A stretch of 64,000 nucleotides of DNA, taken from assembly GCA_022750155.1 (NCBI GenBank), contig JAKIWG010000002.1, positions 20,947-84,946 on the forward strand. Direction: 5' to 3'. How positions within the stretch are numbered: position 1 is the stretch's first letter; each line of letters starts with the position of its first letter. Shown piece by piece: positions 31,600 through 49,694 of the stretch. This DNA comes from Thermoplasmata archaeon. GTDB taxonomy: Archaea > Thermoplasmatota > Thermoplasmata > Lutacidiplasmatales > UBA184. The position numbers and the translations under genes are program-made. The notes under the pieces are model-generated. The model had not been told where the DNA came from. It did no database searches and saw only the letters and a list, made by a program, of their open reading frames with translations.

Positions 31600-32532
31600 C
31601 TACGGTCCGCTGGTCCCGGCGGGGGATGCGCGGGACTCCCGGGTCTGCATGAGTTCGGACGAGGGAAGGTTCTGGATGTCGAGCCCCCGCATCGCCTCGC
31701 CGAGACCGGTCGAGATCTTCGCGAGGTACGCCGCGTCCTCGAAATGGAGGGAGGCCTCGACGATCGCGCGCGCGACCTTGATCGGATGCTCGGCCTTGAA
31801 GATCCCGCTGCCGACGAAGACGCCATCGACTCCCAACAGCCGGCAGAGCGCGGCGTCCGCCGGCGTGGCGATGCCGCCCGCGGCGAAGTTCACGACCGGC
31901 AGGCGGCCGAGCTTCTGGACCTCGAGTACGAGCGCCTCGGGCACCCGCTCGTGGGCCGCCCACGCGCCAATCTCCTTCTTGGGCATCTTCTGGAGGTCGG
32001 CGACCTCGCTACCGATCTGGCGGATGTGACGGATCGCCTCGACGACGTTGCCCGTGCCGGCTTCTCCCTTGGTGCGGATCATCGCCGCCCCCTCGTCGAC
32101 ACGTCGGAGCGCTTCGCCCAGATTGCGAGCACCGCAGACGAACGGCACCTTGAACGACTTCTTCTCGACGTGCCGGAACGGGTCGGCGGGCGTCAGCACC
32201 TCCGATTCGTCGACCATGTCGACCTTCAGGGCCTCGAGGATCCGCGCCTCGGCCGTGTGGCCGATCCGGCACTTGGCCATCACCGGGATCGAGACCCGCT
32301 CGCGGATCTCGCGGATCTTGTTCGGGTCGGCCATCCGGGCCACCCCCCCCAACGCTCGGATGTCGGCGGGAACCCGCTCGAGCGCCATCACGGCCACCGC
32401 GCCGGCCTCCTCCGCGGTCGCCGCCTGGTCGGCGGTGGTGACGTCCATGATGACGCCCCCCTGCTGCATCTTGGCGAACCCGCGCTTGAGGAGTTCGGTG
32501 CCGAAACGGAGCTTCAAACTGGCGTCGGACAT
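31600..32532 (-). CDS. pdxS: Pyridoxal 5'-phosphate synthase subunit PdxS
   Basis: [18 protein letters not shown] and [17 protein letters not shown] motifs; the internal ATG (MSDASLKLR) is taken as the start. Confidence 0.9.
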
Positions 32533-32624
32533 CGTCAGGGCCGCCGACGCGGAACGCGTATAAGAGATTGGGTACCGCTCGAAGTTCCTGACGGAAACAG
32601 GTAAGAGGGTCCGGGCCATGGCGC

Positions 32625-32720
32625 CCGATGCTGGGGGAGCTGTGACTCGGCTGAGAGGACGGGAGCCGCCCGTCGACCCCACGAACCTGATCGGGGTAAT
32701 GCCCGCGAAGGGAACGCGAT
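32625..32720 (+). promoter_or_regulatory. TPP (THI-box) riboswitch in the 5' leader of the ABC transporter operon, with a TATA box near 32559-32567
   Basis: The sequence reads CTGGGGGAGC...GGCTGAGAGG...CGACCCCACGAACCTGATCGGGGTAATGCCCGCGAAGGGAAC. This matches the conserved THI element: CUGGGG, CUGAGA, ACCC and GAACCUGAUC.GGUAAUGCC.GCG.AGGGAA. Confidence 0.75.
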
Positions 32721-32758
32721 GTGCGACCTAACAGCTCCCGCCCGCGCCTGGCGGGGTC

Positions 32759-33943
32759 ATGGGTAGTTCGAAGGCGGGAACGCACGCCGAAACGCCTCGA
32801 CCCCGTCGGCGGAGCGCCGGCCAGACCGGCCGCGCCATCGCCGCCGTGGCCGTGGCCCTCCTCGTCGCGCTCGGTGCGTACGGCGGGTGGGCGTACCTCC
32901 TCGAGCATCCGGCGAACGGTCGCCCCACGCTGGTGATCTACGCCTACTCGAGCCTGTTCAACAACAATTGCGCGAGCACGACGCCGGTGTATGATGCCGT
33001 CTTCGGCGAGTTTGCCCGCTCCCACGGAGTCAATGTGGAGCTCACCTGTCCCGGCGGGACGCTCGTCAGCACGCTGGTCGCGGAGAAGAGCGCCCCCGGG
33101 GCGGACCTCGTGATCGGGCTCGACGAGCTGACCGGGCCCCAGGCGGATTCGGCCGGCGTATTGACGCCCTACCTGTCCCCCGAGCTCGCCCACGTCCCCG
33201 CGGAGCTCGTGAACGGCCTCGCCCCCGACCACACGCTCACGCCGTACGAGTCCGGCTATCTGGCGATCGACTACAACGACTCCTTCGCGCTCCAGACCGG
33301 GGGCGCCGTGGCGCGGAGCGCCTTTCCGGATTTCGTGCAGAATTCCACGTGGGCGAAGGGGTTGGTCGTCGAGAACCCCACGACGGACATCACGGGGGAG
33401 GAGTTCCTCGCATGGCAGGTCGAGTTCTACTCGCAGGTGCTGCACCAGGACTGGCACTCTTTCTGGCGGAGTGTGGACGCCAACCACCTCCCGACCGCCC
33501 CGGATTGGACGACCGCGTTCAACGAGTTCTCCCAGGCGAGCGGGAATCCGCCGATGGTCGTCAGCTACGCCACGGACCCGGCGTACTACGTCTACACGTA
33601 CAACGCCACTTCCCCGTTCCACGCCACCCTCTCCTACTGGAACGGGACGTTCTACGGATGGAAGACGACGTACGGCCTGGGAATCGTCCGCGGAAGCAGC
33701 CACACGACGCTCGACCAGGAGTTCATCGACTGGTTCCTCCAGGGAAACGTCCAGTCCGAGATCCCGCTCAATGAATGGGAGTATCCGGCCAACGCCACGA
33801 CGCCGCTGCCCTCCGTGTACGCGAACGCCTTCCTCCCGAGCGGGGTCGTGGCGCTCAACAACGGGACCACCCCGGGCGCCGTGGCGTCGGCCCTGCCTGG
33901 CTGGCTCGACGACTGGCAATCGATGGAGAACGCGGCCGGCTGA
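32759..33943 (+). CDS. ABC transporter substrate-binding protein (thiamine / iron(III)-type, TbpA-like)
   Basis: N-terminal signal anchor, a periplasmic-binding-protein fold, and its position downstream of the TPP riboswitch. Confidence 0.75.
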   Translation: MGSSKAGTHAETPRPRRRSAGQTGRAIAAVAVALLVALGAYGGWAYLLEHPANGRPTLVIYAYSSLFNNNCASTTPVYDAVFGEFARSHGVNVELTCPGGTLVSTLVAEKSAPGADLVIGLDELTGPQADSAGVLTPYLSPELAHVPAELVNGLAPDHTLTPYESGYLAIDYNDSFALQTGGAVARSAFPDFVQNSTWAKGLVVENPTTDITGEEFLAWQVEFYSQVLHQDWHSFWRSVDANHLPTAPDWTTAFNEFSQASGNPPMVVSYATDPAYYVYTYNATSPFHATLSYWNGTFYGWKTTYGLGIVRGSSHTTLDQEFIDWFLQGNVQSEIPLNEWEYPANATTPLPSVYANAFLPSGVVALNNGTTPGAVASALPGWLDDWQSMENAAG

Positions 33944-35550
33944 TGCGGCGACCGGAGCCGGGGCTCGCGGGGCTCGTTCCGCTGCTGCTCTTCGTCGGCG
34001 GATTCGCCCTCCTCCCACCGGTCCTCCTGTTCCTGATGGCGTGGAGCGCCGAGGGCGGCGCCACCGGGCTCTCCCAGCTTCTCGGCGACCCTCTGAACCA
34101 GGCTGCGATCGCCAACTCCCTCGTCCAGGGCGGGTTGAGCGCGGCGGCGGCCGTCGCGGTGGGCTATCCCGCCGGGGTGTTCCTCGGTCGGTACCAGTTC
34201 AAGGGTCGGGACGCGGTGCTCGCGCTGTTCTCGGTGCCGTTCCTCCTGCCCACGCTCGTGGTCGTCGCCGGCGTCGAGGACCTGTTCGGGCCGCTCGGTA
34301 TCGTACGCGCGGTCGCGCCGAGCCTCGGGTTCCTGGGCGACGGCCTCGGCGGGATCCTCCTCGTGAACGTCTGCTTCAACCTCCCGCTCGTGGCGCTGTT
34401 GACCGCCGTGGGGGTGGAGAGTGCGGACTCCCGGCGGGAGGAGGCCGTGGCCGTGCTCGGCGGAGGGCCCGGGAGGTCGTACCTCGAGGTCTGGGGACCG
34501 CCCTCGTGGGTCGGGGCGGGCGCCGGCGCCTTGCTCACTTTCCTGTTCTCGGCGATGGCGTTCGCAGCGCCGCTCCTCGTATGCGGCCCCCGTTGTTACA
34601 CCCTGGAGGCTCGGATCTTCACCCTCGACCAGCAGCTCGTGCAGCCGGGGGCGGCCGGCCTGCTCGCGTTGAGCGCGGTGATGCTCCTCGCCCTCCCCAC
34701 GCTGTCCTACCTGTGGCTCGTGACCCGATTGCGGGAGCGAAGGTCGGCGAGCGAACCCGCCCTGCGGCCGGTCCCATGGGGTCGGCCCGTGGGACTCGCC
34801 CTGGCGGCGGCTACTGGCGCCGTCGTCGTATTGATCGGGAGCCTCGCCGCGGCGGTCGGGTTCCGGGCGCTCCATCCGGCCGCCGGGGGCCAGGGCGGGC
34901 TGTTCAGTCCCGAGGTGACCCAGCGTTTGGGCATCTCCAGTGTCGGCGCCCTCGGAAACACCCTGTTCTTCGCCGCCGGTGCCGCGGTCGTGGCCGTGCT
35001 CCTCGGGATCCTGGCCGGCTTCCTGATGCGCACCTACCCCCCTCTCGCCCGACCCGTCCAGCTCCCGCTGTTCCTACCGCTCCTCGTTTCGCCGGTCATC
35101 CTCTCGTTCTCGGTCGCTGAATTCTGGCGGCCCCTGCTCGGAGGGGAATCGGACGTCTGGTTCCTGATCCTCCTGAGTCAGGCCACGCTCGCCCTCCCGT
35201 TCGCGACGCAGAGCCTTTGGGTCGGCCTGCGTCGCGTGCCGGCGTCGTACGGCGAAGGCGCGCGCACCCTCGGCGCACGCCCGATGACCGCCTATCTGGA
35301 CGCGGAACTCCCGCTGGTCCGGGGCGCGCTGCTGGCGGCCGCGGTCTTCGCGTTCGCCCTCGGGCTCGGGGAATTCACGGCCACCTACTTTCTCGCCACC
35401 CCGAGGTTCTCGACGTGGACGGTCGAGCTGTACCACCTTCAATCCCTGCGGGAGTACGCCGCGGCGGACCAGCTGGCGTTCGCCTTGCTGCTGCTGAGCT
35501 TCGTGAGCTTCCTCGGGTTGCTCGTGGGAGGTCGGCGTGTCCGGTTCTGA
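33943..35550 (+). CDS. ABC transporter permease (duplicated 6-TM, ThiP-like)
   Basis: 12 TM segments with two EAA-like loops; an ATGA overlap joins it to the substrate-binding protein gene. Confidence 0.75.
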   Translation: MRRPEPGLAGLVPLLLFVGGFALLPPVLLFLMAWSAEGGATGLSQLLGDPLNQAAIANSLVQGGLSAAAAVAVGYPAGVFLGRYQFKGRDAVLALFSVPFLLPTLVVVAGVEDLFGPLGIVRAVAPSLGFLGDGLGGILLVNVCFNLPLVALLTAVGVESADSRREEAVAVLGGGPGRSYLEVWGPPSWVGAGAGALLTFLFSAMAFAAPLLVCGPRCYTLEARIFTLDQQLVQPGAAGLLALSAVMLLALPTLSYLWLVTRLRERRSASEPALRPVPWGRPVGLALAAATGAVVVLIGSLAAAVGFRALHPAAGGQGGLFSPEVTQRLGISSVGALGNTLFFAAGAAVVAVLLGILAGFLMRTYPPLARPVQLPLFLPLLVSPVILSFSVAEFWRPLLGGESDVWFLILLSQATLALPFATQSLWVGLRRVPASYGEGARTLGARPMTAYLDAELPLVRGALLAAAVFAFALGLGEFTATYFLATPRFSTWTVELYHLQSLREYAAADQLAFALLLLSFVSFLGLLVGGRRVRF

Positions 35551-36532
35551 CCTGCTCCGCGTCGAGGGGCTCTCCTCCGCCTGGGGAGCGACTCCGGTCC
35601 TTAGGAACGTCACCTTCCGCGTCACCGAGGGCGAGTTCCTCGCGCTCATGGGCCCGAACGGCAGTGGAAAGACGACCCTGCTCCGGCTGATCGCCGGCCT
35701 CGACCGGGCGGTTTCCGGGAGCATCCGGCTGCGCGGAGCGTCCCTCGACGGGGTGCCCGCCCACCGGCGCGGCATCGGGCTCCTGTTCCAGGACCCGGAC
35801 CTGTTTCCGAACCGCTCGGTGTGGGAGAACGTCGCCTACGGTCCCCAGGTCCAGAAGATGTCCTCCCGGGCGGTCGAAGCGCGGGTGGAGGAGATGCTCG
35901 AACTGCTGCGGCTCCGACCGCTGGCGGACCGGCGGCCGGATCAGCTCTCCGGCGGCGAGCGGCAGCGGGCGGCCCTCGCCCGAACGCTCGCGCCCCAACC
36001 CGCGCTCGTGCTGCTCGACGAGCCGTTCGCCTCCGTCGATGCCGAAATACGGCTCGAGCTCCGCGCGGAGTTCCGAAAGGTGCTCGCCCAGCGCCGAACC
36101 GCCGCGATCCTCGTCACCCACGACCGGGAGGAGGCCTTGTTCCTGGGGGATCGGGTGGCCGTCCTCCTCGAAGGGGAGCTCCGGCAGACGGGTTCGGCCG
36201 AAGGCCTCCACCGCCACCCCGCCGACGAGGAGGTGGCGCGGTTCCTCGGCTACAATGTGATCGAACTCGACGGGGCCTGGCACGCGGTCGACCCGTTCGA
36301 TCTGGAAGTCGCGGACGGTGGGACCGGGGGAATCGAAGTCGAGGTCGTGGCTTCGGGTTGGTCCCATCGGGGTCGAAGCGTCCTGGTCCGGGCGCCGGGG
36401 GGGGCGGTCTGGCAGATGTTCACCGCGTCCGATGCACCCCCGACCGAGGTGGGGAGTTCGCTCCGGATCCGGTGGCAGCGGGCCGTCCGCCTTGGGACAA
36501 GAGGGGTCCTAGACCAATCTCATATGGAGTGA
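35537..36532 (+). CDS. ABC transporter ATP-binding protein
   Basis: Walker A GPNGSGKTT, LSGGERQR signature, Walker B LLLDEP, and a C-terminal TOBE-like domain. Confidence 0.85.
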   Translation: MSGSDLLRVEGLSSAWGATPVLRNVTFRVTEGEFLALMGPNGSGKTTLLRLIAGLDRAVSGSIRLRGASLDGVPAHRRGIGLLFQDPDLFPNRSVWENVAYGPQVQKMSSRAVEARVEEMLELLRLRPLADRRPDQLSGGERQRAALARTLAPQPALVLLDEPFASVDAEIRLELRAEFRKVLAQRRTAAILVTHDREEALFLGDRVAVLLEGELRQTGSAEGLHRHPADEEVARFLGYNVIELDGAWHAVDPFDLEVADGGTGGIEVEVVASGWSHRGRSVLVRAPGGAVWQMFTASDAPPTEVGSSLRIRWQRAVRLGTRGVLDQSHME

Positions 36533-36548: not shown

Positions 36549-39500
36549 GTGTCCCGAGAACCCCCTCGTCGGATCGGTTGGCCACGGTGGGGCCCTGTCG
36601 CCATCGTGCTGATCTTTCTCCTGAGCGTCCTCCCGATGCCCTCCGGTTTCCTGGCCAACGGCCCGGGGCTCACGCCGGCGCGCGAGCACCCGGTCGCAGC
36701 CCCCGCCGCGCCCCGTGCCGGATCCCACGTCCTGTCTCACCCGTTGCCGAACCAGCCCGCCCCTGTGTTCCACGGACTCGCCCAGGGCGCGTACCGGTCG
36801 AACGGCGTCACTCCCGCGTCCTGGGGCGGTTCCAAGTTGCCCCCGGGGGCCCCGATCCCCAGGAACCTCCTCTCGCATCCGGCCAACTGGTCGGACCCCA
36901 ACGGCTCCGGCATCAACTGGACGGCGCTCGCCAAGTTCTGCTACGGCGTCTGGCCGACCGGGGGCGGGCAGGCGCAGTACCTCGCCAACTGCTACGGCCA
37001 CGATGAGCCGGGCCTCGATCCCTACTCGAACCTGCCGGGCAGCGGCGGCAACGTCAGCTGGAACATCACGCTCCCGACGGGCCGCAACGACACCGAGATC
37101 CAGTCGGCCCTCTACTCCGCGATCTGGTTCGGAATGGTGCTCACGGACCCCTACGCATGGATGGACCAATGTTTCCTGGAGCTCCAGTTCTACCCGGACA
37201 GCAGCTGGGGGCTGTCGCAGGGCAGCGCCGGGAACTGGGTGGGGGCGGCCGTCGCCTGGCAGATTGAAGCCGCCACCGGCGCCGAGGACCCGTGCTTCTA
37301 CCAGCAGCTCACCGTGCAGGGCTCCTCGAACTATTTCAACATGTTCGGCGGCGACAACATCCGCGTCACGATGACGGGCTGGATCGGATCCCCGTACGGC
37401 GAGAACCTCACCATCACCGATGTCACCGGCGGCGGCACGTCGTTCGTCAACCTGTACAACTCGGCATTGTACTACCCCCTCGACCCGTCCTACCTCACGT
37501 CCAGCTTCCCCAACGCCCTGCAGTGGACCCCGGGAGGCGAGCTGCCCGTTTCCTTCGCGTTCGAGACGGGTCACTCCAACTCGAACTTCCCGAACACCAA
37601 CCAGTACGGGGGGTGCAGCGCCGGCCCTCCCCCGCCGACCCCCACGAATCCGTCGGTGCCCTGCCCGAGCTACGACCCCGGCAGCTGGGCGAACGATACC
37701 GTCACCCCGTGGCTGATCCAGCCTCCCGTCTTCTTCAACGCCACCGCCCGGGAGACCGCGACGCAGGTGGGGTTCACCCAGGATTTCGCCGCGATCCTGT
37801 TCATCGACGGGATCAGCAACGGCGCGTGCCTCGGCCGCGACGGATCGGCCTGGTGCTCGTACCCCTGGTACAGCTTCTCGTGCCTTTGGAATGCCTTCGA
37901 GTTCGGCGCCACCGACTACCCTGGCGTGACCCGGGACTTCGGGAAGTACAACGAGTACCCCCGCCCGTTCCTCACCGATAGCGCGAATCTGGGCTACTAC
38001 CCCCCGGGGAACTTTTCGGTCCCCGGGTGCGCGAGCCCCACCTATTCTATCGTAATCGGAGCCCTCGGCGGGAGCGGTGCCGGTACCGCCCGCCTCCTCG
38101 GCACGGGGACGACCACCTCGTCGAACGTCACCGGTCTCACGGTCGGCCAGTATGCGCTGAGTGCCGAACCGAGCCCGGGGTATCGGCTGATCCACTGGGT
38201 CACCACCGGAGGGGCGAGCGTCGACTTCACGAACAGTCCGTGGGCTTCCCTCAACGTGACCGGCAATGGGAGCGTCACGGCCGTGTTCGGCCCGATCACC
38301 GCCGGCACCGTGACGATCCATTTCGTCGACGAACGGGGATGGGGTTGGCAGGCCATCGGTCCGGGCCTGCTCTACGACCCGGTCCCCTCGACCAAGAGCC
38401 TCGGGGTCAACGGGTCGATCACCCTCTTGCCTGGAGTCTATTCGATCCTCGGGTACGCGAAACCCGGATTCAACTTCACCGCTTGGCAGTCCAACAACTC
38501 CGGAGCCAGCGTGGCGGCCGATGGGTTCCCGTACACCTGGCTGGTGGTGACGGGATCGACGAGCGTCGTCCGGATCAATGTCACGTTCACCCCGAGCTTC
38601 GCGAACGCATCGGTCACGATCTCCTGGTTCGGGGCCACCGGGGCGGTCACGTTCAACGGCCAGTCGGTAGGGAACGGCGCCGGGTTCAGCCTCGCGGTCG
38701 GCACGTACCCCCTCGTGGCCACCCCCTCGAGCGGAAACGCGGTCGGGTACATCAGCGCGGGCGGCATCGGCATCGTGCTCGACCAGCACGACGCGACGAA
38801 TGTCACGGTGGAGGCGGGGTTCGTTTCGATCGTGGTCATGTTCGACCTGGCCGCGACGGTCACCGTCGCCACCGCCGGAGGGGATGGCAACGTGTCGATC
38901 GACGGTCTCCCGTTCGCCGGAAACCATTCGGCGGTGGTCCTGCCCGCGATCTTCGCCCCGGGGGAGTTCACCCTCTACGCCACCGAACCCACCGGGAAGG
39001 CGTTCTCCCGCTGGACGGTCGCCAACCCGGCGGACCTGTGGGTCGTCAATCCCAACGCCGCCGTCACCGCGATCTGGGTCAACACCTCGTCGACCCTCAC
39101 CGCGCATTACGTCCCCGCGGCCTCGCTCTATCCGGTCGTGATCCGGATCTCGCCCGCGGGGTCGGGTTCCGTCTCCCTCGACGGAGGGCCATGGACCACC
39201 ACCTCCCCGTGGTTTCTCAATCTCTCGGCCGGCGCCCACCTCTTGGAGGTCACCCCCGGGTCGATGTACGTCGCGTCCTGGACCTCCGCGGGGGGGCTCA
39301 CCCATTCGGCGCCGCCCTCCGTGTATCCCGTGGGCGCCCAGCTCCTAGGCGTCGGCACCAAGCCGGGCTGGCTGAATGGCACGTTCACCCGGCCATCGGG
39401 GGTGTACTTCCCAGTGACGATCGTCGCCGAAGACGCGACCGGGAAGGTCAAGATCGACGGGGTCGCCCGCCCCAACGGGGGGACGATCGTCCTCCTCCCG

Positions 39501-40865
39501 GGCAGCCACACCGTCACGGCGAGTTTCCCGGCTCCGCTCGCCTTCGTCGGGTTCGAGGCGACCTCCAACCTGACGTTGGTGACGTCCCCCTTCGCGACGA
39601 CGGTGAACGTGCAGGGCGCCGGCACCGTCTACGCGATCTCGACCTGGCCGATCGCGCTCAGCGTGAAGGCCAACGTGACCGGGGGCCGCGCGCCGCTCCC
39701 CGTCTCGTTCTCGAGCGGCGTGGCGGGAGCGAGGGCTCCCTGGACGATCACGTGGAACTTCAATGACGGATCGACCCCGGTGATCGGCGCGTTCGCGAAC
39801 CACACGTTCGCCGTCGCCGGATTCTACAACGTGACGACCACGGTGATGGATTCGGTCGGCGGGAGCGGTTCGATGGTGACGCTGATCAAGGTCCTCCCTC
39901 CGGCCCTCACCGCGCTCGCCGTCGCCAACGTCACGAGCGGGATCGCCCCCCTCACCGTCTCGTTCGTCGGGCACGGGTCGAGCGGCGTCCCGCCCTACAC
40001 CTACAACTGGACCTTCGGAGATGGTAGCGCGAAGGTCATCCAGCAGAACGCCACCCACACGTTCACCAATCCCGGGACGTTCACCGTCAACTTCTACCTC
40101 AATGACAGCGCGCGCCAGCACGTGGTCTTCCCCATGATGATCGTGGCCAGCTCCTCGCTGACCGCTTCGATCGCGGCGTCCCCTCTCTCCGGGGCGGCGC
40201 CGCTCGTCGTGAAATTCCAGGGGGTCGCCCACAAGGGGACCTCGCCGTACACGTACGCCTGGGCGTTCGGGGACGGCGTCGACGCGTCGGGCGCGAACGT
40301 GAGCTACACCTACCGGGTCGCCGGTACCTACAACGTCTCCTTACTGGTCAACGACCGGTTCGGGAGCCTCGCGAGCTCTAGCGTCGAAGTGAACGTCACC
40401 CCGCAGTTCTTCCCGCTCTCGGTCTCGATCGTCGAGTCTTCGGGGAACGTCACGCTCGGAAAATCCGTGACGATCCGCGCCGATGCCACCGGCGGCACCC
40501 CGCCGTACACCTACCTATGGGGAGGCCTGCCCCCGGGTTGTACCGGGGCCGGCGTCTCCTTCACGTGCACCCCGACGGCCAACGGCACCTACCAGCCGAA
40601 CGTCACGGTGGGCGACAGCGCTCCGGGGGACTCGGCCTCGACCACGGTCCAGCTCATCGTCTACAAGTCGCCTTCCACGGGACCCGGCGGCCCGGGCTCC
40701 ACCCCCACCTCGATCACGAGCGCGTCGTCCCTTGCGTGGGTCCCCTATGTGGCGATCGCCGTCCTGATCGGAGCGGGCGTCGTCGCGTTCGCGATGTACC
40801 GGCGACGGCCCCCCTCCTCGGCCGAGGGGGGCTCCGACGACGCGCCCGACCCGGGCGCAGAGTAG
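36549..40865 (+). CDS. Giant surface glycoprotein (1438 aa) with C-terminal PKD repeats and a C-terminal TM anchor
   Basis: Signal/TM at the N-terminus (VAIVLIFLLSVL), very dense N-x-S/T sequons, and four PKD-like repeats (..PLTVSF..G..PYTY.W.FGDGS). It ends with the TM helix AWVPYVAIAVLIGAGVVAFAMY plus RRRP. Confidence 0.75.
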   Translation: MSREPPRRIGWPRWGPVAIVLIFLLSVLPMPSGFLANGPGLTPAREHPVAAPAAPRAGSHVLSHPLPNQPAPVFHGLAQGAYRSNGVTPASWGGSKLPPGAPIPRNLLSHPANWSDPNGSGINWTALAKFCYGVWPTGGGQAQYLANCYGHDEPGLDPYSNLPGSGGNVSWNITLPTGRNDTEIQSALYSAIWFGMVLTDPYAWMDQCFLELQFYPDSSWGLSQGSAGNWVGAAVAWQIEAATGAEDPCFYQQLTVQGSSNYFNMFGGDNIRVTMTGWIGSPYGENLTITDVTGGGTSFVNLYNSALYYPLDPSYLTSSFPNALQWTPGGELPVSFAFETGHSNSNFPNTNQYGGCSAGPPPPTPTNPSVPCPSYDPGSWANDTVTPWLIQPPVFFNATARETATQVGFTQDFAAILFIDGISNGACLGRDGSAWCSYPWYSFSCLWNAFEFGATDYPGVTRDFGKYNEYPRPFLTDSANLGYYPPGNFSVPGCASPTYSIVIGALGGSGAGTARLLGTGTTTSSNVTGLTVGQYALSAEPSPGYRLIHWVTTGGASVDFTNSPWASLNVTGNGSVTAVFGPITAGTVTIHFVDERGWGWQAIGPGLLYDPVPSTKSLGVNGSITLLPGVYSILGYAKPGFNFTAWQSNNSGASVAADGFPYTWLVVTGSTSVVRINVTFTPSFANASVTISWFGATGAVTFNGQSVGNGAGFSLAVGTYPLVATPSSGNAVGYISAGGIGIVLDQHDATNVTVEAGFVSIVVMFDLAATVTVATAGGDGNVSIDGLPFAGNHSAVVLPAIFAPGEFTLYATEPTGKAFSRWTVANPADLWVVNPNAAVTAIWVNTSSTLTAHYVPAASLYPVVIRISPAGSGSVSLDGGPWTTTSPWFLNLSAGAHLLEVTPGSMYVASWTSAGGLTHSAPPSVYPVGAQLLGVGTKPGWLNGTFTRPSGVYFPVTIVAEDATGKVKIDGVARPNGGTIVLLPGSHTVTASFPAPLAFVGFEATSNLTLVTSPFATTVNVQGAGTVYAISTWPIALSVKANVTGGRAPLPVSFSSGVAGARAPWTITWNFNDGSTPVIGAFANHTFAVAGFYNVTTTVMDSVGGSGSMVTLIKVLPPALTALAVANVTSGIAPLTVSFVGHGSSGVPPYTYNWTFGDGSAKVIQQNATHTFTNPGTFTVNFYLNDSARQHVVFPMMIVASSSLTASIAASPLSGAAPLVVKFQGVAHKGTSPYTYAWAFGDGVDASGANVSYTYRVAGTYNVSLLVNDRFGSLASSSVEVNVTPQFFPLSVSIVESSGNVTLGKSVTIRADATGGTPPYTYLWGGLPPGCTGAGVSFTCTPTANGTYQPNVTVGDSAPGDSASTTVQLIVYKSPSTGPGGPGSTPTSITSASSLAWVPYVAIAVLIGAGVVAFAMYRRRPPSSAEGGSDDAPDPGAE

Positions 40866-46128: not shown

Positions 46129-46911
46129 ATGCGACTGGTCAGCTTGGGCCTACTGGGAACCATCGGCGTGCTCCTCCTCGCCATACTGCCCGCAGCGGGC
46201 GCCGCCGCACCCCTCAGCGGTGTGGTCACGACGTGCAGCTCGACCTGGAGCTGCCAGTTCACCTTCAATACCTCGGCGGGCACGGGCTGGGCCCACGGCG
46301 TCGGGAACGCGGGCTACGGCAGGGCCGGAGTGATTTCTCTCCAGCTCCCGGGCGAGTCGAAGGCCTCGTACAATCTGAGCTACAACACCTGGATCGGCAG
46401 CCTGATCGGCACCTACACCTATTGGACCGAGGGGCAGTTCTTCGGCACCGACGTGAACACGGGGTACGTCGTCTTCGGCAATACCAACACGAACTACACG
46501 ATCACCTGCCACGGCCACAGCGGCCACGGCGGGGGATGCACCTACACGTACACCACGGACAATGGCACGATCGTCGTCCGCTTCACGCACGCCGAGCAGA
46601 CCATGACCTCTCTGTCCTGCTCTCCGACCAGCATCAACGTGGCCGGCAAGACGACCTGCACCGCCACCGTGACGAACCTCTGGAACAGCACGAACTACCC
46701 CGCGGGGAAGATTCACTTCGCGAGTTCGGGCGGAGGAAAGTTCTCGAACATGGGGACGTGTACTCTCTCCTCCAACGGCACCTGCACGTTCACTTGGCAT
46801 CCGTCCGATAATACCTGCAGCTTCTCGACCCTCTCTGCGACCTACGGAGGGACCGCCAAGTTCTACCACAGCAGCGGATCGACGCTCGAGGGCGTCACCG
46901 GCGGTTGCTAG
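46129..46911 (+). CDS. Secreted protein with an Ig-like (Big) domain, hypothetical
   Basis: Signal peptide MRLVSLGLLGTIGVLLLAILPAAGAA, Cys pairs and N-glycosylation sequons; the internal ATG is taken as the start. Confidence 0.5.
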   Translation: MRLVSLGLLGTIGVLLLAILPAAGAAAPLSGVVTTCSSTWSCQFTFNTSAGTGWAHGVGNAGYGRAGVISLQLPGESKASYNLSYNTWIGSLIGTYTYWTEGQFFGTDVNTGYVVFGNTNTNYTITCHGHSGHGGGCTYTYTTDNGTIVVRFTHAEQTMTSLSCSPTSINVAGKTTCTATVTNLWNSTNYPAGKIHFASSGGGKFSNMGTCTLSSNGTCTFTWHPSDNTCSFSTLSATYGGTAKFYHSSGSTLEGVTGGC

Positions 46912-47059
46912 GTACCCCATGGTCGCCCCCGCCTCCCCGTGAGGGGGGGGCCAGCCACGCCAAGCTTGCCACAGGGCCGCGCGCCCCTCGTCGCCGGTTC
47001 CTTCGTCCTCAGGCGACGTGCGTCGCTGGAACCTCGGCCGAGGTCGATTGCCTCGCCGA

Positions 47060-47107
47060 GAAAGAAGGGGGACGCCCGTGCCGGGAATCGCCCCAAATCT
47101 GAGACTC
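47060..47107. repeat. Degenerate direct repeat of the 3' half of tRNA-Arg (putative att remnant)
   Basis: 47060-47107 aligns at about 80% identity to 49576-49621, the acceptor 3' strand, T-arm and anticodon-stem 3' strand of the tRNA (shared GAAAG..ACGCCCGTGC.GGGA.T.G..CCCA..TCTGAG.CTC). Confidence 0.5.
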
Positions 47108-47130
47108 GAGGGTTCGTTCTCGAGGACGAT

Positions 47131-47357
47131 TCAATCCTCCACCTCGCGTGGCCGATCCGCGACGGCGGCCCTTCCGTGGGCGATGAACCCGATCAAGTCC
47201 TTCGACGACTTTGGTCGATGTCGGCGAACTACCACTTCGCCCTCGCGCACCTCCCAAGCGAGGACGTCCCCCTCCTGGATGCCGACCTCATCTCGGACGG
47301 CCCTGGGGGCCACAGTAAGGTTTCCCTTGGAGACTTCGGACTCGCTGAGAACGGTGA
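47131..47357 (-). pseudogene. AbrB/SpoVT-domain (antitoxin-like) ORF with no canonical start; probably decayed
   Basis: Manual translation gives a full swapped-hairpin domain (VSKGNLTVAPRAVRDEVGIQEGDVLAWEVREGEVVVRR), but no in-frame ATG, GTG or TTG covers the N-terminal half. The track calls only the C-terminal 60 aa. Confidence 0.4.
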
Positions 47358-47509
47358 ACTACAGGAGGCCAACAATGAGTCCTGATCGTCACCAGGTCGC
47401 GCGGTTCTAACAGAGGGAAACGCCCGTGATGGGATTCCCTCCAATTCTAGGGTGTCGGGATTCGTTCATTAGAGACCGAGAGTGCGGATCACGGCCCCGG
47501 CCGCCGAAT

Positions 47510-47911
47510 TCAGATGGTGGTGACCCCCGGCAATCCGGCCAAGGCCGCATCACTGGTGTAGAGTTCGGCGCCAAAGCGGCGCGCAGTGGCGAGGATCTGT
47601 GCATCGGAGAGGTGCAGCCGGTGCGCGAGACTGAAATCCGCGGCCTCGAGGGCGATATCTCGGTCTATCGCAACCACCCGTGTTCGGTCTAAGGCGGCTA
47701 CGTCCCGAAGTGCGGTTTCCTCACCGAGCGCGCCTTTCACCCGCTTGTAGACCTCACACAAAACGACGACCGAGGTGATGATCGCCTGGACGTCCACCCG
47801 ATCAATCACCCGGTTGTAGTCAGGGGCCTTCGGCCCCCCCATGAACCGCTCGATCCACCCATAGCTGTCGATGCAGATGGGGTGCGCCGGTGCCCTATCA
47901 GAATCGGTCAT
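47510..47911 (-). CDS. vapC: PIN-domain toxin VapC
   Basis: ICIDSYGWIERF N-terminus with D...E...D...D acidic residues; 133 aa; overlaps vapB by 14 nt. Confidence 0.8.
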   Translation of the reverse strand: MTDSDRAPAHPICIDSYGWIERFMGGPKAPDYNRVIDRVDVQAIITSVVVLCEVYKRVKGALGEETALRDVAALDRTRVVAIDRDIALEAADFSLAHRLHLSDAQILATARRFGAELYTSDAALAGLPGVTTI

Positions 47912-49585: not shown

Positions 49586-49694
49586 CGCCCGTGCTGGGAT
49601 TTGAACCCAGGTCTGAGGCTCCGCAGGCCTCTAGGATAATCCAGTGTAGCGGGGCGGGAGCGAATCCCGCACCCCGTAGCTACCCCACACGGGC
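49586..49694 (-). tRNA. tRNA-Arg (anticodon GCG) with a ~37-nt insertion (putative non-canonical intron) between the D-stem and anticodon stem
   Basis: Acceptor GCCCGTG/CACGGGC with discriminator G; T-arm CTGGG-TTCAAAT-CCCAG; anticodon arm GAGGC-CUGCGGA-GCCUC. The D-stem is GGGG/TCCT with two G-U pairs, and the D-loop region holds an extra hairpin (GTAGC...GGGG..GGG-ATTCGCT-CCC.CCCC...GCTAC). Confidence 0.6.

Follow-up and report, generated by a model that had tools for sequence, protein, structure and literature searches.

Thiamine pyrophosphate (TPP) riboswitches commonly precede the thiamine importer genes thiBPQ in Bacteria. The E. coli thiM leader is reportedly a riboswitch of the Shine-Dalgarno (SD)-sequestering kind, in which an anti-SD strand, freed when TPP binds, covers the ribosome-binding site. 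Here we analysed a 64-kb stretch of DNA (the whole of which is called the window) from a Thermoplasmata archaeon of the Lutacidiplasmatales, contig JAKIWG010000002.1, in which a TPP aptamer stands in the leader of a three-gene ATP-binding cassette (ABC) importer operon resembling thiBPQ. In Archaea, TPP riboswitches are sporadic (PMC5473149). They have been described upstream of a transporter in the Thermoplasmatales, namely in Thermoplasma acidophilum, T. volcanium, Ferroplasma acidarmanus and the 'plasmas' of acid mine drainage (bioRxiv 10.1101/538918), and in metatranscriptomes the leader is expressed together with the downstream transporter (bioRxiv 10.1101/538918).

The locus in the window has the same aptamer architecture and the same ligand-contact blocks as the bacterial thiBPQ (tbpA) leaders and E. 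coli thiM. Its place is that of the bacterial thiBPQ element, the 5' leader of a thiamine-type importer, and its putative logic is that of thiM. In contrast to both, the host is an archaeon. Three details differ as well. The competing strand would pair not with P1 but with P2/P3 or, for most members of the genus, with the 3' strand of P3 together with the J3-2 sequence CUGAGAGG; P1 is very short and probably lies at the extreme 5' end of the transcript; and the SD-like tract is only 1-3 nucleotides (nt) from the start codon. With the Thermoplasmatales riboswitches the locus shares the archaeal class, the RNA family and the position upstream of a transporter, but there the downstream gene encodes a multi-transmembrane protein, whereas here it is the first gene of a three-gene ABC importer.

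The importer itself can be compared with E. coli ThiBPQ. The substrate-binding protein aligns to E. coli TbpA (2qry) along almost all of its own length, two domains are fused in a permease as large as ThiP, and the genes follow the same order of binding protein, permease and ATPase. Sequence similarity is low, however, with all components far below the equivalog cut-offs, and E. coli ThiB carries a periplasmic signal peptide where the archaeal protein has an N-terminal membrane anchor.

A TPP aptamer in the leader of a ThiBPQ-like operon

The whole window was scanned by cmscan against all 4227 Rfam families at gathering thresholds. The sole match was RF00059 (TPP) on the forward strand (61.3 bits against a gathering score of 54.3, E 1.4e-9; Table 1). 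It covered model positions 1-105 of 105 and was not truncated. A local Rfam scan of 32400-32900 with permissive filters recovered the match again (E 1.1e-11) and found nothing beyond the TPP element. An RF00059 search of the 2.13-Mb, 93.7%-complete genome returned a single copy.

All of the conserved TPP blocks were present in the cmscan alignment: GGGG.GC (P2/P3), GCUGAGA, ACCC and GAACCUGAUC..GG.UAAU.CC.GCG.AGGGA. So were the ligand-contact blocks, CUGAGA for the pyrimidine sensor and ACCUGAUC...UAAU...GCG.AGGGA for the pyrophosphate sensor, and the ligand-contact columns were invariant or nearly so across the 28 usable loci of our comparison with relatives.

The helices were supported by these loci as well. 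RNAalifold found P2, P3, P3a, P4 and P5 independently in a MAFFT alignment of the 28 loci, with compensatory changes in 8 of the 21 pairs of its consensus. P1 is a short 4-pair helix directly flanking the core. In its columns 67.9% of cells were paired, compared with 20-51% when the strands were slid against each other; all four pairs showed compensatory changes, and none of 500 shuffles reached the observed covariation. The earlier note on this DNA, made from the letters alone, had claimed a near-consensus THI element and named RF00059 as the model to check it against. Both the score and the coverage of the full model bear this out, and the P1-P5 fold forms, with compensatory changes in the relatives. 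Judged from sequence comparison, it is at the very least nearly certain that the element is a genuine TPP riboswitch aptamer.

The element is followed by an importer operon. The ThiB-like gene begins 27 nt 3' of the end of the Rfam match on the same strand, and ATG 32759 is the only start codon possible for it. The three forward-strand genes, for binding protein, permease and ATPase, have overlapping stop and start codons: the permease ATG overlaps the upstream TGA (TGATG), and the GTG start of the ATPase, 5 nt after GGGAGGU, overlaps the permease end. The binding protein scored 107 bits against TIGR01254, the NCBIfam thiamine substrate-binding subfamily (cut-off 93.4). Its best solved relative was E. 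coli TbpA (2qry, E 1.4e-14, residues 52-388), its relatives carry the name thiamine ABC substrate-binding protein at NCBI and JGI, and the N-terminal membrane anchor was read from its translation. ThiP models aligned to the permease over residues 92-582.

The thiamine-type importer that had been read from the letters is supported at the level of the binding protein. The accompanying guess of a Thermoplasmata lineage agrees with the closest named homologues, which NCBI labels 'Thermoplasmata archaeon', and the remark that archaeal TPP riboswitches are mostly known from Thermoplasmata agrees with the published cases, Thermoplasma and Ferroplasma. NCBI gives many homologues of the binding protein, 52-59% identical to it, the name 'thiamine ABC transporter substrate-binding protein [Thermoplasmata archaeon]'. 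The closest public record is a forest-soil metagenome-assembled genome (MAG) labelled 'Methanobacteriota archaeon', at 77% identity. As to transfer of the binding protein from Bacteria, the 120 best homologues all belonged to the same archaeal lineage, and the search was uninformative on origin.

Riboswitch and importer stay together in relatives

In a first draw of genomes, a TPP match was found in all 24 genomes of the same genus (one fragmented assembly had two, on duplicate contigs) and, among other families of the class, in f3 (2/2) and f10. A second draw added 9 of 10 further same-genus genomes and four other genera of the family. These tallies include one unpublished genome each (G019 in the first draw, G128 in the second); both were left out of all alignments and no conclusion rests on them. 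Across 151 genomes of the class, TPP matches occurred in six families (f3 counted from the earlier draw), and the other families sampled among the 151 had none. In a phylum-wide draw, a sole family outside the class had matches, in five of nine genomes.

The arrangement is conserved along with the element: riboswitch and binding-protein gene formed a pair in each of the 24 same-genus genomes of the first draw, and three further families of the class had this pair too. A homologue of the binding protein (40-77% identity) lies directly downstream in 28 of 28 usable loci, the first in-frame ATG or GTG comes 129-140 nt past the start of the aptamer model in these loci, and pdxS is divergent upstream in all same-genus loci. 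In f1, f3 and f10 the gene after the TPP riboswitch encodes an ABC binding protein. In one same-genus locus, L018, the binding-protein gene matches in the expected frame only from residue 164, which points to a frameshift or an assembly error in that MAG.

A covarying hairpin adjoins the start codon

Between the aptamer and the start codon lies a hairpin, which in the window ends 1 nt 5' of the AUG (Table 1). A hairpin before the start codon was found in 28/28 loci, and its arms change together: CUCCGC/GCGGAG, CUCUGC/GCAGAG, CUCCGG/CCGGAG, CCCCCG/CGGGGG, CCCGCC/GGCGGG and CUUUCUCC/GGAGAAAG. Purines prevail in the 3' arm, which reads GCGGAGG across most of the genus and GGCGGGG (32750-32756) in the window. 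The distance from hairpin to start codon is 1-4 nt in the genus and 8-10 nt in low-GC outgroups.

In a model-fitted alignment of 25 loci, 79.8% of the hairpin cells were paired, compared with 47-64% when slid, and nine cells were changed on both sides, a number that none of 500 shuffles reached. Such an alignment leans towards structure and the sequences are related, so that this is moderate evidence. A plain MAFFT alignment (A1) gave no hairpin covariation signal, the varying loop length shifting the register.

The purine-rich arm resembles an SD sequence and matches the anti-SD. The 16S rRNA 3' end reads GGAUCACCUCCU in five same-genus genomes, none of them the window's own genome, in which no 16S is assembled. 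The duplex of leader and anti-SD averaged -8.5 kcal/mol, compared with -5.6 kcal/mol for 951 crude gene starts of this genome. Genome-wide SD enrichment was mild, as gauged crudely from open reading frames (ORFs) without a gene finder.

A hairpin strand that may compete with the aptamer

The 5' arm of the hairpin, together with its loop, is complementary to the aptamer, and a putative switching strand overlaps this arm. In the window this strand begins with CAGCUCCC, the complement of GGGAGCUG, which makes up the 5' strands of P2 and P3. RNAduplex gave -24.8 kcal/mol for the platform-aptamer duplex, and the CAGCUCCC/GGGAGCUG pairing appears in the unconstrained minimum-free-energy fold of the window. 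In most of the genus, CCUCUCCGCCGGnnC pairs instead with GnnCCGGCUGAGAGG, the P3 3' strand plus the conserved J3-2. Where the variable end of P3 changes, the hairpin loop changes with it (GGUUC/GAACC, GGUGC/GCACC, GGUC/GACC). The platform of one locus is a different one, UGCCCAGCU/AGCUGGGCA, and a platform of the form CUCUCCGCCGG is present in an orthologue.

Two comparisons support this pairing across loci. In alignment A1, 73.4% of cells of the platform-aptamer helix were paired, compared with 40-47% when slid, and none of 500 shuffles was as high. Over the 28 loci, each platform formed a more stable duplex with its own aptamer (-22.1 kcal/mol) than with those of other loci (-19.9 kcal/mol), and none of 20000 permutations was as good; relatedness among the loci inflates both results.

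Accessibility of the start site was then modelled on transcripts starting at P1, as the mean unpaired probability of positions -12 to +3. It averaged 0.49 for the free ensemble and dropped to 0.38 once the aptamer was enforced, with the expected direction in 25 of 28 loci; in the window it fell from 0.51 to 0.34. Of the aptamer pairs, only 22% form in the free minimum-energy fold of the window, and the cost of enforcing the aptamer there is 6.8 kcal/mol, a sum that TPP binding at nanomolar affinity would, by our estimate, more than supply.

A model of TPP-dependent start-site hiding

These observations are consistent with the following model. At high TPP, the aptamer P1-P5 would close and free the switching strand, which would then pair with GGCGGGG just 5' of the AUG. 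The resulting hairpin would hide the ribosome-binding site and the start codon, and synthesis of the importer would be off. At low TPP, the same strand would instead invade P2/P3 on their 5' side (GGGAGCUG), leaving the start site open. We infer both the OFF direction and the translational mechanism from these pairings and from the position of the hairpin. That the riboswitch represses the importer in response to TPP is very likely on the sequence evidence, and that it does so by sequestering the start site is, on the modelled structures, a reasonably good bet. Taken as a whole, a functional TPP riboswitch at the 5' end of a thiBPQ-like mRNA with TPP-dependent start-site hiding is our favoured interpretation, and we hold it to be probable.

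Several observations weigh against this interpretation. P1 in the window itself has only 3 pairs. The window hairpin (-12.7 kcal/mol) is not better than dinucleotide shuffles (z -0.62, with 46 of 200 as good); because z-scores are weak in high-GC loci, hairpin stability was not used as evidence, and support for the hairpin comes only from comparison with relatives that are not mutually independent. In the genus, GGAGG stands 1-3 nt from the start codon, while this genome shows a mild preference for a spacing of 5-9 nt. Accessibility changes only modestly in the models, and in some relatives not at all. With 10 more nucleotides at the 5' end the window showed no change (0.40 versus 0.42); the accessibility result depends on the transcript start.

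The importer side is affected too, as no component reaches the ThiB, ThiP or ThiQ equivalog cut-off. The binding protein scored 51.9 bits against the ThiB equivalog TIGR01276 (cut-off 317), the permease about 57-63 bits against ThiP equivalog models (cut-offs 395-970), and the ATPase 139-143 bits against ThiQ equivalog models (cut-offs 245-298); the ATPase stayed under every other equivalog cut-off as well. For this reason we call the system ThiBPQ-like and not an orthologue of proven specificity, and its substrate may be thiamine, thiamine monophosphate (TMP) or TPP. Indirect support for such a substrate comes from the TPP riboswitch in the leader and from the finding of no route in the genome by which thiamine precursors could be used.

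Promoter boxes and alternative explanations

Two AT-rich boxes come into question as the promoter. The element was expected to lie between the box GTATAAGAG, taken as its TATA box, and the start of the binding-protein gene. The position holds, but the box probably belongs to the divergent pdxS. In the window, 29 nt separate its centre from the pdxS ATG, and in 22 loci a box of the GTATAAGA type is found at 29-40 nt from the start codon of pdxS. In three loci with a pdxS-riboswitch spacer of 177 nt, and in two with one of about 700 nt, this box keeps its place next to pdxS. The usual distance between the centre of an archaeal TATA box and the start of transcription is about 26 nt; with this spacing the position of the first box fits a leaderless or nearly leaderless pdxS mRNA, and suggests one. 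Judging from position, GTATAAGAG is most likely the pdxS promoter and not that of the riboswitch.

The other AT-rich box, in its typical form aaA(c/t)(g/c)TTAAT, has its centre 27-33 nt 5' of the P2 GGGG in 22/22 loci, whatever lies upstream. It is our candidate for the promoter of the riboswitch-thiBPQ transcript, whose start, again by position, is predicted at about 32626-32632, a few nucleotides before P1. In the window this proximal box, GGTAAGAG, is weak as a TATA box for this genome, and GTATAAGAG is the clearest AT-rich element of the intergenic region. If GTATAAGAG were the riboswitch promoter or bidirectional, the leader would start at about 32590, and the longer leader would allow P1 to be extended by upstream nucleotides into an interrupted helix, which can be drawn in the aptamer-enforced fold. 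Against this stand the tracking of GTATAAGAG-type boxes with pdxS even across long spacers and the fixed distance of the proximal box from P2 in all 22 loci, and we consider a leader driven from GTATAAGAG unlikely.

A second possibility is a genuine aptamer that acts through transcription (premature termination or polymerase pausing) or through mRNA decay, with the hairpin being incidental. The insignificance of the window hairpin taken alone, the modest thermodynamic switching signal and the mild SD enrichment in this genome would all be compatible with it, and our literature search found no dissected archaeal TPP expression platform. However, archaeal termination needs oligo-T. There is no run of five T near the element and only two in the 64-kb window, neither a T-run nor a terminator-like site occurs between aptamer and AUG, and a scan for bacterial-type promoters and terminators found nothing. 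Furthermore, the hairpin always adjoins the start codon with the purine-rich tract in its 3' arm, its arms covary, and its 5' arm is complementary to the aptamer. Control by transcription or decay is quite unlikely.

A chance match or a decayed, non-functional relic, for which one could cite a score merely 7 bits over the gathering threshold and the weak P1 of the window, is extremely improbable. The element is single-copy in the genome, and all same-genus genomes of the first draw, as well as other families, keep it at one and the same place before one and the same gene; its ligand-contact blocks are invariant and its helices show compensatory changes.

Thiamine physiology of the genus

Searches of the genome found no ThiC, Thi4, ThiE, ThiN, ThiD or thiamine pyrophosphokinase (TPK), the Thi4 search giving only sub-threshold FAD-fold matches. 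The genome does carry ThiL (TMP kinase), which scored 223.5 bits (cut-off 184) and lies on contig 46 at 46704-47582, outside the window. Among 30 further same-genus genomes, ThiC was represented only by a fragment of 62 residues, at the end of a contig in a single MAG, and ThiD only by weak partial matches inside proteins of about 500 residues, one of them marginally over the cut-off (30.8 bits versus 27). Absence from MAGs is never proof, but the pattern across the genus is consistent. The organism is probably a thiamine auxotroph whose only TPP switch throttles uptake, and the gene content suggests that the genus is probably unable to make thiamine or to use its precursors. With biosynthesis and precursor genes not found, the importer would have to bring in the intact vitamin or its phosphates.

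Although ThiL is present, no known kinase that would take imported thiamine to TMP or TPP was found in the genome.

A literature search for ThiR or for thiamine auxotrophy in soil Thermoplasmata found nothing relevant. Lutacidiplasma is described as having about 69% GC and about 2.1 Mb, from forest soil (PMC9287336); the paper on the Lutacidiplasmatales does not mention thiamine or riboswitches (PMC9287336). The GC content of the window is about 70%.

Other contexts in the class and neighbouring genes

In family f20 (low GC, complete genomes of 1.5-2.0 Mb), the riboswitch usually occurs in two copies and the downstream gene encodes a major facilitator superfamily (MFS) transporter, which matches the published Thermoplasma and Ferroplasma cases. 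There the start codon is often inside the 3' end of the aptamer, in contrast to the single copy and the separate hairpin platform described here. In the f20 loci L036, L038, L040, L045, L047 and L056, 84-95 nt of the aptamer match precede the MFS start codon, which thus falls within the 3' end of the match. In this family, presumed to be Thermoplasmatales, hiding of the start codon may be the work of the aptamer alone, without a separate platform. In the high-GC families f27 and f29 (L044:290-1339, L055:416-1471, L058:61-1470), an AIR-synthase-related (ThiL-like fold) protein or an NCS1 (cytosine/purine/thiamine) permease is encoded downstream.

The features of the locus are collected in Table 1. 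Upstream lies pdxS at 31600-32532 on the reverse strand (PdxS equivalog, 472 bits). After the importer operon, an ORF at 36549-40865 on the forward strand encodes 1438 residues with three PKD domains near the C-terminus, probably a surface protein. ARAGORN found no tRNA within the window, and the Rfam tRNA model gave 24 bits at 49586-49655 on the reverse strand, against a gathering score of 29.

Table 1. Features of the riboswitch and importer locus (window coordinates).
Feature	Position	Strand	Remark
AT-rich box GTATAAGAG	32559..32567	-	most likely TATA box of divergent pdxS
Candidate BRE (transcription factor B recognition element)/TATA-like box GGAAACA GGTAAGAG of the riboswitch-thiBPQ transcript	32593..32607	+	fixed distance to aptamer
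TPP aptamer (Rfam envelope)	32623..32731	+	RF00059, 61.3 bits
P1	32629-32631/32716-32718	+	aptamer helix
P2	32633-32636/32677-32680	+	aptamer helix
P3	32638-32642/32648-32652	+	aptamer helix
J3-2 CUGAGA	32651-32656	+	aptamer junction
P3a	32658-32662/32670-32674	+	aptamer helix
P4	32686-32688/32709-32711	+	aptamer helix
P5	32692-32695/32702-32705	+	aptamer helix
Putative switching strand	32732..32746	+	CAGCUCCC (32732-32739) complementary to GGGAGCUG (32635-32642)
Hairpin predicted to bury the purine-rich ribosome-binding tract	32734..32757	+	arms CCCGCC 32737-32742, GGCGGG 32750-32755
ThiB/TbpA-like substrate-binding protein, 394 aa, N-terminal membrane anchor	32759..33943	+	TIGR01254, TbpA 2qry
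Fused double permease, ThiP-like architecture, 535 aa	33943..35550	+	two BPD_transp_1 stretches
ABC transporter ATPase, ThiQ position	35537..36532	+	PF00005, E 6.9e-37

Implications

The riboswitch class itself is ordinary. What is new is the lineage and the archaeal ABC-importer context, together with the proposed platform competing with P2/P3 and the probable auxotrophy, so that the novelty is modest. A bolder reading would combine an undescribed kind of TPP platform, with the transcript starting at a vestigial P1 and an anti-SD strand set against P2/P3 or against the P3 3' strand and the SD-mimicking, universally conserved CUGAGAGG, with a genus of obligate thiamine scavengers; this reading is tentative, and we lean slightly away from it. 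If true, it would give Archaea their first mechanistic model of translational riboswitch control open to mutational tests. An entire genus of Thermoplasmata abundant in acid soils would then be obliged to scavenge thiamine, by one RNA-controlled uptake route and with neither a thiamine kinase nor a pyrophosphokinase of a known kind.

The finding extends archaeal TPP riboswitches from the MFS-transporter context of the Thermoplasmatales to ABC importers, and the riboswitch supports assigning a thiamine-type substrate to an importer that is otherwise weakly annotated. The conserved, covarying platform offers a place to test translational riboswitch control in Archaea, which has so far been barely studied. 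Taken together with the biosynthesis genes not found, the riboswitch predicts that a genus of uncultured soil archaea depends on external vitamin B1, a prediction that could guide attempts to cultivate them and inform models of how soil organisms cross-feed vitamins.

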